Positions 1 through 4,516 of a DNA stretch of 4,516 bases are shown one piece after another; positions within the stretch are counted from its first letter, which is position 1; each line of letters begins with the position of its first letter. Position numbers and translations under genes: made by a program. The notes below the pieces were generated by a model, which was given only the letters and a program-made list of their open reading frames with translations, had not been told where the DNA came from and searched no databases. This DNA is from a virus (Duplodnaviria > Heunggongvirae > Uroviricota > Caudoviricetes), in IMG/VR virus record IMGVR_UViG_2713896791_000013. One strand, given 5' to 3'.

Positions 1-17
1 ACCTTGGTTTAAGAGAA
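1..17. promoter_or_regulatory. Partial crossover site for a serine invertase (left, cix/gix/hix-like); outer half lies beyond the window
   Basis: Bottom strand reads TTCTCTTAAACC-AA-GGT. This fits the recalled hixL (TTCTTGAAAACC AA GGT...) and gixL (TTCCTGTAAACC GA GGT...) pattern of TTC....AAACC, a 2-bp core, then GGT. The site sits at the outer boundary of the repeat, as in P1. Confidence 0.6.
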
Positions 18-681
18 CTCGGTACCAGCGGTGAAAAGATCCCCCTGTTGAGCACGGCTAACACATGGAGTGCGCGCCAGACTTTCAACGGCGGGATCAC
101 CGGGGCGCTGACAGGGAACGCCGACACCGCGACGAAATTGAAAACAGCCATAAACATTAATGGCGTCAGGTTCGATGGTTCTGGTGACATTAATATCAAT
201 ACTCTGGTATCGCGCGGTCGCGTAACGGCCTTGGAGGCGAATGCACAGGGAACATCCGGGATTCAGCTGTATGAGGCATACAACAATGGCTACCCTTCCC
301 CCTATGGCAATGTGCTTCACCTTAAAGGTGCCACCGCTGCTGGCGAAGGTGAGTTATTCATTGGCTGGAGTGGCACGAGCGGTGCCCATGCGCCCGTACA
401 TATCCGTTCGCGGCGGGATACTGATTCTGCCAACTGGTCTGAATGGGCGCAGGTCTATACGTCAAAAGATTCAATTCCCGGCGTCAATGCCAAAGGGGAT
501 CAGGATACTTCCGGCAATGCTGCTACGGCGACCAGATTGCAGACGGCGCGCACTATTAACGGTGTTTCGTTTGATGGTTCTAAAAACATTGAGCTAACGG
601 CTGAAAATTTAAATCTTGAGCAAACCGTAGAACTAGCCGCTGGATCATTGCAGAAAAACCAGAACGGCGCGGATATTCCTG
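1..681. repeat. Left inverted repeat (IR-L), 681 bp, coding for the shared part of the tail fibre
   Basis: Reverse complement of 3836..4516, checked directly at both ends. Three overlapping frames give identical mirrored ORF translations (9..320 with 4197..4508, 241..597 with 3920..4276, and the main fibre frame), which implies nucleotide identity throughout. First mismatch is at 682 (g) versus the complement of 3835 (a). Confidence 0.9.
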
Positions 682-1562
682 GAAAAGATACCTTCACTAA
701 AAATATTGGTGCATGTCGCGCTTTTCACAGTTCTATTAGTACAGGTGCAGGGAACTGGACAACGGCACAATTGATTGAATGGCTGGATTCTCAAGGGGCA
801 TTCAATCACCCATACTGGATGTGCAAATGTTCATGGTCATACGGCAATAATAAAATTATAACCGATACTGGCTGTGGAACTATTCATCTTGCAGGTTGCG
901 TTGTTGAGGTTATGGGTAATAAAGGTGCCATGACCATCCGTGTAACAACGCCAAGCACTTCCACCGGTGGCGGAACCACTAATGCGCAATTTACGTATAT
1001 AAACCACGGTGGAGATTACGCACCAGGCTGGCGGCGTGACTACAGTACCAAAAATCAGCAGCCTGCATTTGCTTTAGGGCAGACAGGAAGCACTGTTGGA
1101 AATGACAAAGCTGTTGGATGGAACTCAATTAGTGGCGTTTATAATGCGACTATTGGTGGAGCATCAACATTGATTCTTCACTTTAATATGAATGCGGGGA
1201 GTTGCCCTGCTGTTCAGTTCCGTGTGAATTATAAAAATGGCGGTATTTTTTATCGTTCAGCGCGAGATGGTTACGGATTCGAAGCTGACTGGTCAGAATT
1301 CTACACCACAACACGTAAGCCATCAGCGGGAGATGTTGGTGCATATACCAAAGCAGAATGTAATTCACGATTTATTACAGGTATTCGATTAGGTACAAAA
1401 TCGTCAGTGCAAACATGGAATGGTCCTGGTTGGAACGATAAATCTGGTTATGTTGTTACTGCCTCAATCAACTCAAATAAGGACGAACTTATTGATACAA
1501 CTCAGGCAAGACCTGTGCAGTATTGTATCAATGGCACTTGGTATAACGCGGGAAGTATTTAA
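3..1562 (+). CDS. Tail fibre protein, C-terminal portion, variant A (5'-partial). Shared region is encoded in IR-L; variant-specific receptor-binding domain from 682.
   Basis: Long ORF ending at TAA 1560..1562. The track's 'M' at 48 is a TTG codon, and the frame has no stop back to nt 3, so the gene starts upstream of the window. Contains the fibre-like repeat motif GNA.TAT.L.TA..INGV.FDGS twice. Followed 2 nt later by a chaperone gene. Confidence 0.85.
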
Positions 1563-1564
1563 TT

Positions 1565-2098
1565 ATGCAGCATTTGAAAAACATCAGATCCGGAAATCCA
1601 AAAACTGTTGAACAATATGAATTGACGCGACAATTCGGTGTTGTCTGGTTGTATTCTGAGGACGATAAAAACTGGTATGAGGAACAAAAGAACTTTCAGG
1701 ATGACACTATAAAAATTGCTTACACATCAGATGGAATTATTGTGGCTATAGATAAAGACGTATCTACAATAAATCCAGAAGGTTTAAGCGTTGTTGAGGT
1801 TGCTGACATTACTGCAAATCGCCGTGCTGACATTTCGGGTAAATGGATGTTCAAAGATGGCGTAGTGATAAAGCGAACTTATACCGAGGAGGAACAGAGG
1901 CAGCAGGCAGAGAATGAAAAACAAAGCCTGTTGCAACTTGTCAGGGATAAAACCCAGCTATGGGACTCACAGCTACGGCTGGGTATCATTTCAGACGAGA
2001 ATAAACAAAAATTAATCGAGTGGATGCTCTATGCGCAGAAAGTCGAATCTACAGACACCTCCAGCCTGCCAGTAACGTTTCCCGAACAACCAGAATGA
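1565..2098 (+). CDS. Tail fibre assembly chaperone (Mu U / P1 U / Tfa family), cognate to variant A
   Basis: 177-aa ORF with ATG at 1565, 2 nt after the fibre stop, and a GGGAAG Shine-Dalgarno-like sequence at 1550..1555. N-terminus MQHLKNI..GN.KT.EQYELT...W.YSED.KNWYEE is recognised from memory as typical of enterobacterial phage tail-fibre assembly proteins. Paralogous to the 2126..2653 ORF. Confidence 0.85.
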
Positions 2099-2101
2099 GA
2101 G

Positions 2102-2121
2102 AAGGCCCGCTATCGGGCCTT
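2102..2121. terminator. Candidate bidirectional terminator hairpin between the convergent chaperone genes
   Basis: Perfect 8-bp GC-rich stem AAGGCCCG / CGGGCCTT with 4-nt loop CTAT, in the 27-bp gap between stop codons at 2096..2098 (+) and 2126..2128 (-). Followed by AATTTT on the + strand; the U-tract is weak in both directions. Confidence 0.5.
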
Positions 2122-2125
2122 AATT

Positions 2126-2653
2126 TTACTCTGGTTTTTGTGGCCATTCTGGCTTTGCCGTATCCACGCGGCTGACCAGAACGCTGTAGCGTTCCCAGGC
2201 TTCCAGTCGTGTACGTTCCTCATCTGTTGCCATATTCAGCCTGACAGCGCGCTCCAGTGGCTGAATAACGCTTTCCGCATCGGAAAGTAACGCGGCCTTT
2301 TGTGATTCGGCCTGTTGTTGCTGTTCTTCTGCCGTATAAATCCGTTTAACCACAGCTCCGTCCTTAAACATCCACTTACCGGAATCATCGGCCCGACGAT
2401 TGGCTGTTATATCGGGGACTTCAACAACGCTAAAGCCTTCAGGATTAAGTGTGGAGGCATCTTTAGTGATGGCTACAATAATATTATTTTCATCGTAAAC
2501 AATCTTTATTGTGTCTGGCTGAAAATTCTTTACCTCTTCATACCAGTTCTTCCCGTCTTCAGAGTAAAGCCAGATAACTCCGTGCTTCTTTGTTAACTCA
2601 TACTGCTCCGGTGTTTTAGCATTACCAATTTTTATGTTCTTTAAGTGGATCAT
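2126..2653 (-). CDS. Tail fibre assembly chaperone (Mu U' / P1 U' / Tfa family), cognate to variant B
   Basis: 175-aa ORF on the minus strand, with its ATG (2651..2653) 1 nt after the variant B fibre stop (2655..2657). About 74% identical to the 1565..2098 product over the first ~123 residues (counted by hand); the last ~55 residues are divergent. Confidence 0.85.
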
Positions 2654-2654
2654 A

Positions 2655-4514
2655 TTAAACGCTCGCTACATTATACCAGGTGCCATTTATATATTTTTGA
2701 ACGGGTCTGTAATAAACGCCAGCTATATTATCGGCAGAATTGGACCCTGTATCCTGAACATTTATACCAGACAATACATGACCTGAAGGGCACTGGAAGT
2801 TCCATGTTTGCCAGTTGTTCACACCATAATATTGCTGTGAGCCAAGCCGAACATCTTTCACATATCGGGAATCAATGTTACCCCAGTTGCTTGGTTGTAT
2901 CTGACCGTTTACAGCAAATATCACCGAGTTATCTGTATTTCGCTGACTATAGAAATGCCAGCCTGAATCATCACCAAGCTCTGCAACAGTTGGTCTTGAC
3001 GAATTTCCCCACAAGTTAAATGATGCATTACGGGCAGCGGTATTTGCACTTGAAAGTGTGAAGAACTTACTTTCCCCAGCCTGAATACCCTTTAATGATC
3101 TTGCTGAACCATTTATAAAGCGGAATACATGCACACCATTAGCATAAGCATCCAGCACCCCATCACCATTTTGTTTAAACCCGGTATCGTTATCTCCTAA
3201 AACTATTGAATTTCCACCCAGGGCATTAGCCGTTCCAATCCCCAGATTTCCGCTAAAAATGGCATTAATACCGAATATTGAGTGAGAACAATAAAACCCT
3301 CGCCCATTGTTAAAATCCAGAATGGCTTGTGCGTTCGTGCTTTCTGTCGCGGGATTAGTTGCTCCCCACTTATATGTTGTTTGACCGACGGTATAATCCT
3401 GAGTTGGAACAATAACCGTTAGCCCTTCTTCAGCAGAAACCCGCACAGGAAAAGCCCTGCCTTCAACGTAAAAAACGCTGCATACATCATCTTCTTTAAG
3501 GCTTGTTACAATGGAATGGATTGCGCGCTCATTAGTCTGATACGTCGAAAAATAACCTGCCGCATATGAACCACGATCAGTCCAGCCACCAGGCATTACC
3601 ATTCCATTGAATTCGCAGTTATTCATTTCGTAATTACCACCGGCAGATGTGGTCGTTATAATCACTCTGGAAGCCAGCTCGCCAGTGCTGCCTGTGGAAC
3701 GCTGGAAAATAACTGGATACCACTTTCCACCAACAGCATTAGACGGCGCGTTAAATACGTACTGCCGCATTCCTTTTTTCTTATCCACCTCGCCTTTGCT
3801 GTAAACATTAATGTTACTCAGGAAGCGATCTTTATCAGGAATATCCGCGCCGTTCTGGTTTTTCTGCAATGATCCAGCGGCTAGTTCTACGGTTTGCTCA
3901 AGATTTAAATTTTCAGCCGTTAGCTCAATGTTTTTAGAACCATCAAACGAAACACCGTTAATAGTGCGCGCCGTCTGCAATCTGGTCGCCGTAGCAGCAT
4001 TGCCGGAAGTATCCTGATCCCCTTTGGCATTGACGCCGGGAATTGAATCTTTTGACGTATAGACCTGCGCCCATTCAGACCAGTTGGCAGAATCAGTATC
4101 CCGCCGCGAACGGATATGTACGGGCGCATGGGCACCGCTCGTGCCACTCCAGCCAATGAATAACTCACCTTCGCCAGCAGCGGTGGCACCTTTAAGGTGA
4201 AGCACATTGCCATAGGGGGAAGGGTAGCCATTGTTGTATGCCTCATACAGCTGAATCCCGGATGTTCCCTGTGCATTCGCCTCCAAGGCCGTTACGCGAC
4301 CGCGCGATACCAGAGTATTGATATTAATGTCACCAGAACCATCGAACCTGACGCCATTAATGTTTATGGCTGTTTTCAATTTCGTCGCGGTGTCGGCGTT
4401 CCCTGTCAGCGCCCCGGTGATCCCGCCGTTGAAAGTCTGGCGCGCACTCCATGTGTTAGCCGTGCTCAACAGGGGGATCTTTTCACCGCTGGTACCGAGT
4501 TCTCTTAAACCAAG
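2655..4514 (-). CDS. Tail fibre protein, C-terminal portion, variant B (5'-partial). Shared region is encoded in IR-R; variant-specific domain 2658..3835.
   Basis: Long minus-strand ORF ending at TAA (complement of 2655..2657). Identical to variant A through residue P211 of the track translation, then unrelated. Frame is open to the window edge; the track start at 4469 is TTG. Variable domain is about 100 aa longer than A. Confidence 0.85.
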
Positions 4515-4516
4515 GT
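3836..4516. repeat. Right inverted repeat (IR-R), 681 bp, mirror of IR-L
   Basis: Same evidence as IR-L; position p on the left corresponds to 4517-p on the right. Confidence 0.9.
4500..4516. promoter_or_regulatory. Partial crossover site for a serine invertase (right), inverted relative to the left site
   Basis: Top strand reads TTCTCTTAAACC-AA-GGT at 4500..4516. The core dinucleotide is AA here and TT at the left end, the inverted orientation needed for inversion rather than deletion. Confidence 0.6.

Follow-up and report, generated by a model that had tools for sequence, protein, structure and literature searches.

The cix crossover sites of bacteriophage P1, the invertase Cin and C-segment inversion were defined in 1982-84. 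In the P1 reference record (NC_005856), the Cin/cix system is annotated base by base, and later papers have reviewed it. The same type of site, a 12-2-12 arrangement with an AAACC-NN-GGTTT centre, was found in the G segment of phage Mu (Gin/gix), the P segment of e14 (Pin/pix) and the H segment of Salmonella (Hin/hix), and in each of them a serine invertase adjoins the segment. The tail-fibre switching logic is shared by Mu and e14, while the Hin system switches a promoter and not a coding end. The inverted repeats of the Mu G segment are only about 34 bp long. The Min system of p15B, with its mix sites, also belongs to the Din family, has the core AA and resides on a P1-related plasmid (PMC3241671; notes of the P1 record), and it differs from the DNA described here in having six crossover sites that shuffle several segments, instead of two terminal sites only. 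For P1, a switch of host range by inversion of the C segment has been described in the literature (PMC6906374 among the sources).

The whole stretch of DNA analysed here, 4516 nt of a tailed virus, is called the window below. It was concluded, with a probability of about 95%, that the window comprises the invertible C segment of a P1-like phage-plasmid in full, and that it is terminated at either end by the segment-side half of a Cin crossover site, cixL or cixR. This reading is directly supported by the identity of the sites, their completion by the flanks, the Cin neighbour, the occurrence of both orientations, both in-frame fusions and a junction lying within 19 nt. The system is the P1 Cin/cix system itself, which was already known, and one of the two tail-fibre alternatives of the C segment is not that of P1.

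Crossover sites at the ends of the window

Positions 1-17 of the window read ACCTTGGTTTAAGAGAA, and the reverse complement, TTCTCTTAAACCAAGGT, is found at 4500-4516, as could be seen by direct reading. The in-window part of the left cix site (1..17, minus strand) is composed of three outer-arm bases (1-3), the core (4-5, TT on the top strand) and the inner arm (6-17), and that of the right site (4500..4516, plus strand) of the inner arm (4500-4511), the core AA (4512-4513) and three outer-arm bases (4514-4516). The original prediction, which was made from the window alone, had both ends giving TTCTCTTAAACC-AA-GGT when read from the inside outward (1-17 on the bottom strand, 4500-4516 on the top strand) and the cores in inverted orientation. 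Both statements were correct, with TT at 4-5 and AA at 4512-4513 of the top strand and a core that is not palindromic. Invertible DNA is thus bounded here by two inverted sites with non-palindromic cores.

A search allowing up to three mismatches revealed two copies of the 17-mer in the window, both terminal and none elsewhere (chance expectation 0.02). No internal or secondary cix-like site was present within the window at up to three mismatches to the 17-mer or up to two mismatches to AAACCWWGGTTT, and no further site with the family centre AAACC-WW-GGTTT was found there besides the two terminal ones. A multiple-inversion (shufflon-like) system of the p15B Min type was rejected, since there are two terminal sites only and no internal cix-like site. 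The two copies of the 17-mer are not independent of each other, because each forms the terminal 17 nt of one arm of a 695-nt inverted repeat, so the real question was whether the 17-mer is a recombinase site. What goes beyond chance is its identity, 17/17, to the published cixL and cixR.

Only 17 bp of each site lie in the window, and the remaining 9 bp per side were taken from records which differ from it at two bases. These nearest public records were pUTAK-19-1 (CP157128) and pUTAK-25-1 (NZ_CP157120), with the differences at 587 and 1799. An exact copy of the window was found neither among the public records, where these two were the best with two differences, nor among the contigs carrying the exact U protein of the window, which differ at 80 or more positions. 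In the flanks of pUTAK-19-1 and pUTAK-25-1, the full site on the cin side reads TTCTCTTAAACC AA GGTTTAGGATTG, and the full site on the side of the tail-fibre constant part (Sc) reads TTCTCTTAAACC AA GGTATTGGATAA. We infer that the unseen flanks of the window itself are those of these nearest relatives, and they would then read CAATCCTAA at one end and ATTGGATAA at the opposite end.

Dyad symmetry extends over 8 of the 12 positions in each completed site (P = 0.003 for 8/12 or more by chance). With 26/26 identity, the two sites equal those of P1 and D6 at the equivalent positions, and also cixL and cixR in the published table of Din-family sites (Table 3, PMC3241671). In the P1 record NC_005856, cixL is annotated at 32215-32234 and cixR at 36471-36490; the annotated crossover of cixL (32224/32225) aligns to window 4|5 and that of cixR (36480/36481) to window 4512|4513. 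When the 17-mer was compared across the family, it matched cix at 17/17, pix (pixL) at 15/17, hix (hixL) at 14/17 and gix at 13/17, that is, with differences at two positions in pixL, three in hixL and four in gix, whose core is GA. The gix and pix sites used here were derived again from the Mu and K-12 e14 records.

The 17-mer had been taken for the inner arm, the 2-bp core and the first 3 nt of the outer arm of a 26-bp site, and two checks had been proposed, namely extension by 9 nt in search of a 12-2-12 dyad and comparison with curated sites. Both bore the proposal out, with the flanks of the near-identical records completing two imperfect dyads, and with 26/26 identity of the completed sites to the curated P1 cixL and cixR. 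The assignment to the Hin/Gin/Cin/Pin family was right and can be narrowed, for the site is specifically cix (17/17) and not a generic member (Hin 14, Gin 13, Pin 15). The outer arms, which had been expected to read GGTTT.....AA, were each half as predicted: the arm on the cin side (GGTTTAGGATTG) begins with GGTTT and ends with TG, while the arm on the Sc side (GGTATTGGATAA) ends with AA and begins with GGTAT. The sites do lie exactly at the window edges, as had been stated, and this placement is by construction and not by biology. In the flanks of the nearest records, GGT is common to the outer arms of both sides and is followed by T in one and A in the other; both the inverted repeat and the window stop 3 nt past the core because outer-arm position 4 differs (T vs A). 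The interpretation of the edges as invertase crossover half-sites is supported.

Gene content and inverted-repeat arms of the C segment

Megablast matches to the window came from P1, D6, P7 and numerous P1-like phage-plasmids from E. coli, E. fergusonii, E. albertii and Salmonella; the left 2.7 kb of the window were 87% identical to P1. Between the repeat arms, the architecture is that of two convergent gene pairs, each composed of a tail-fibre C-terminal part and an assembly protein. Part A (3..1562, plus strand), which resembles Sv' of P1 and S' of Mu, carries the Pfam domain gp37_C and has 87% DNA identity to P1. Its frame has no stop from the left window edge to 1562 and is completed by Sc when the two abut. 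The assembly protein paired with A is U'-like (1565..2098, plus strand; Pfam Caudo_TAP, E = 1.6e-35) and has the same annotation in the relatives. On the other strand, part B (2655..4514, minus strand) has a frame open to the right window edge and is paired with a U-like assembly protein (2126..2653, minus strand; Pfam Caudo_TAP, E = 2.3e-37). The exact U protein of the window is widespread, occurring in 682 blocks of the collection, and among the matches listed, 8/8 contigs had it in a P1 context with a Cin-type recombinase adjacent.

Part B contains a unique stretch (2655-3821, or about 2700-3820) which is absent from P1, D6 and Mu. No Pfam match was obtained for it. Its best phage matches were tail fibres of P2-like Peduovirus phages, with 56% amino acid identity over the full length, and its C-terminal half was about 63-65% identical to fibres of Mu-like and P2-like Yersinia and Citrobacter phages. 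The stretch probably represents a receptor-binding module that was acquired by exchange with P2-like phages.

In the 27-nt gap separating the convergent assembly-protein genes, a G+C-rich hairpin (AAGGCCCGCTATCGGGCCTT) followed by AATTTT was identified (2102..2121, plus strand), with 8 pairs, 6 of them G-C, and 0.2 expected in shuffles. Going by its match to the consensus, it is likely a terminator for the expressed pair. An inverted repeat of 276 nt, 1636-1911 against 2307-2582 with 71% complementarity, represents the paralogous U and U' genes facing each other, and it was rejected as a recombination site on that account.

The left arm (1..695) and the right arm (3822..4516) of the C-segment inverted repeat are each 695 nt long and 99% complementary to each other, and both carry the portion of the tail-fibre variable region which is common to the two alternatives. 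They are 96% identical to the arms of P1. The complementarity is perfect over 681 nt (1-681 against 3836-4516), while close relatives have arm differences at 587 (the pUTAK plasmids), from 473 onward (97,648-bp plasmids from Germany) or at 20, 23 and 26 (four plasmids, L023-L026). A sub-lineage with a 4519-nt segment (L019, L020 and L022), which carries the exact U protein of the window and a 3-nt indel relative to it, has arm differences beginning at position 92 and occurs in both orientations relative to cin. The perfect arms of the window suggest that the arms have been homogenised in this lineage, possibly by gene conversion. In one conceivable reading, frequent gene conversion would keep the 681-nt arms identical, given that markers in relatives lie as close as position 20.

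Two open reading frames occur twice each with identical translations, one of 103 aa (9-320, minus strand, and 4197-4508, plus strand) and one of 118 aa (241-597, plus strand, and 3920-4276, minus strand). They are mirror copies because of the inverted repeat, and they are probably not genes, lying on the strand opposite to the tail-fibre frame or in another frame.

Compared with P1, the site positions relative to cin are the same, the stop of cin lies inside the cixL outer arm in both, and both 26-bp sites are identical (26/26, with the outer arms of the window taken from near-identical records). The architecture also agrees, with inverted repeats of about 0.6-0.7 kb and convergent Sv'/U' and U/Sv. 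In contrast, the segment is 4516 nt in the window and 4264 nt in P1, the window arms are 695 nt and perfect to 681 while in P1 the first arm difference is at 563 and divergence sets in from about 617, and P1 lacks the P2-like, probably receptor-binding part which the window carries at 2655-3821. D6 (MF356679), with 84% identity to the window, shares both 26-mers, cixL and cixR, as well as the gene order, but its arms are diverged and differ already at position 29. In P7 (AF503408), a homologous C segment with 83% identity to the window is annotated with S, Sv' and U'. In its central part (about 620-2717), the window is 81% identical to the G segment of Mu.

Adjacent recombinase and natural inversion junctions

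In pUTAK-19-1, the gene of a 186-aa Cin orthologue ends at the base directly before the window, and thus outside it; the same position, with the gene running to the last base before the segment, was found in all loci from Cin-type records. A small serine recombinase is therefore adjacent to the segment in the loci of the relatives. The protein contains the Pfam domains Resolvase (PF00239) and HTH_7 (PF02796), is 98% identical to P1 Cin, and has the Gin invertase structure 3uj3 as its closest solved structure (E = 6e-89). Its TAA stop (L001, 3998-4000) lies directly to the left of window position 1. The final codons and the stop of cin form the outer arm of cixL, so that the site overlaps the 3' end of cin, as in P1. 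The 72-nt stretch annotated inside cin of P1 as the Cin enhancer was conserved at 68/72 positions in pUTAK-19-1, which speaks weakly for function because this stretch is coding sequence. Across 20 loci from 19 Cin-type P1-like records, both orientations of the segment were common, and the cixL-type outer arm was on the cin side in all of them (20/20), whichever way the segment lay.

Junctions were mapped by comparing closely related plasmids with opposite orientations of the segment, using the mismatches between the two arms as markers. The sample consisted of assemblies of related, not clonal, plasmids in seven sets, and both orientations, each with a different gene set, occurred in these sets. 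In every set the segments were identical when aligned in their own orientation, and the flanks matched once one locus had been flipped, with zero differences in most sets and a small number in those less closely related. Beyond each window edge, the first base remained with the flank, and all arm markers travelled with the segment. In window coordinates, the junction interval was 1-586 for pUTAK-19-1 and pUTAK-25-1, 1-679 for pRHB39-C21_3 and pRHB39-C17_3, 1-472 for the four 97,648-bp plasmids from Germany, 1-448 for p18B233LT1 and p18B269LT2 of E. fergusonii, 1-562 for the plasmids of ETEC1706 and ETEC1730, 1-44 for pRHB23-C02_3 and pRHB23-C01_3 of E. fergusonii, and 1-19 for L023-L026.

The last set sharpened the result most. 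These four plasmids are about 98% identical to the window, with 1-5 segment positions differing among them, and their arms read CTCGGTACC and CTTGGCACA, differing at positions 20, 23 and 26. Cin is on one side of the segment in two of them and on the other side in two, and in all four a given arm variant goes with the same tail-fibre alternative. This places the exchange point within positions 1-19 of the window, because the markers at 20, 23 and 26 follow the segment and the outer arms stay with the flanks. This interval comprises the three outer-arm bases, the core (4-5), the inner arm and two more bases, and it excludes exchange in the remaining 660 nt or so of the repeat. The earlier suggestion to map the junctions at single-nucleotide resolution was thus borne out in its main point, the junction being confined to 1-19 and not deeper in the repeats, at a resolution of 19 nt; comparison cannot go finer, since positions 1-19 are identical on both sides. 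Siblings of D6, whose arms differ from position 29, were sought for sharper mapping, and none was found at 99% identity or more.

The pRHB23 plasmids of E. fergusonii (L017, 1-1530; L018, 5760-7292) deviate in their recombinase. Cin is reduced there to a remnant of 225 nt, and a 193-aa invertase is encoded on the opposite strand, with 61% identity to Mu Gin and 60% to P1 Cin. The site on the recombinase side is a hybrid: its inner arm is that of cix, its core is AA, and its outer arm, GGTTTTTGCGAA, agrees with that of hix at 10/12 positions, while the other site is a normal cixR. This hybrid pair of sites appears to be functional, because the sibling plasmids carry opposite orientations. Since the same inner arm and core are paired there with a different invertase, the window by itself does not tell which enzyme is involved.

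Three other explanations have to be weighed against Cin acting at cix. The segment could be flipped by RecA-dependent homologous recombination anywhere in the 0.7-kb repeats, with the resemblance to cix being incidental. The arms, 695 nt long and perfect over 681 nt, would be a good substrate for it, and five of the seven plasmid sets bound the junction merely to the outer 448-679 nt. The remaining two sets speak against it: the interval of the pRHB23 pair is 44 nt, and in L023-L026 the markers at 20, 23 and 26 go with the segment and outer-arm position 4 goes with the flank, leaving 19 nt. For RecA-mediated exchange to be efficient, E. coli needs at least about 23-27 bp of homology, and 19 nt is below that. 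With sites 26/26 identical to experimentally defined cix and the Cin gene adjacent, homologous recombination is extremely unlikely. The sites could also be a relic, with true cix sequence and a switch that is dead, for example through truncation or loss of cin; P1-like plasmids in which cin is truncated or inverted and the C segment damaged have indeed been described (PMC6906374). The window, however, retains two intact sites along with two intact gene pairs and two intact reading frames, and among the nearest relatives, which have full-length cin, the segment is found in either orientation. Perfect sites, or flipped copies among near-identical plasmids, would not be expected of a dead switch, so a relic is most improbable.

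The pRHB23 plasmids give substance to the remaining alternative, in which the sites are genuine Din-family sites and the source element uses a different, Gin- or Hin-like invertase, the recombinase-side outer arm being another one as well. These plasmids share the inner arm and core of the window, have a non-Cin enzyme and occur in both orientations. Their segment is, however, more distant (4292 nt, with arms diverging from position 45), and in all records at least 98% identical to the window, and likewise in the 8/8 listed contigs with the exact U protein, a 186-aa Cin-type gene runs to the last base before the segment and the outer arm is of the cixL type. Another invertase in the source element is thus hardly to be expected. 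In the specific form that the element of the window is a hybrid like that of pRHB23, with cix inner arms served by a non-Cin, Gin/Hin-like invertase via a chimeric site, the idea is very unlikely; if it were true, it would represent a natural modular swap of the invertase and the outer half-site in which the segment-side half-sites are retained.

Proposed inversion mechanism and meaning for P1-like phage-plasmids

Under the preferred reading, Cin acting at cixL and cixR, the inversion would follow the course known for Hin, Gin and Cin. Dimers of Cin would bind to each 26-bp site, and the two sites would be brought together in a synapse that also includes an enhancer, bound by Fis and located in the 5' part of cin; the dependence on Fis and the enhancer is carried over here from the described systems and is to be regarded as presumptive. 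Staggered cuts, offset by 2 nt, would then be made in all four strands at the central AA/TT, the exact cut positions being those expected by analogy, and one half of the complex would turn by 180 degrees through subunit rotation before religation. The outcome would be inversion, because the cores are inverted.

By flipping about 4.5 kb, Cin would join the constant N-terminal part of gene S in frame to either of the two promoterless tail-fibre C-terminal parts, each of which comes with an assembly protein of its own. Both products could be read from relatives that differ in nothing but segment orientation. In pUTAK-19-1 the constant part is fused in frame to alternative B, giving a tail fibre of 1097 aa, and in pUTAK-25-1 it is fused in frame to alternative A, giving one of 997 aa. 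The exchange of the tail-fibre end would be expected to switch the host range.

For annotation, it follows that the two seemingly truncated tail-fibre reading frames are alternative C-terminal ends and not pseudogenes, and assemblies of such phage-plasmids will legitimately differ in the orientation of the segment. The comparison of public plasmids provides an independent and purely computational confirmation that the natural inversions of this lineage exchange DNA within 19 nt of the segment end.
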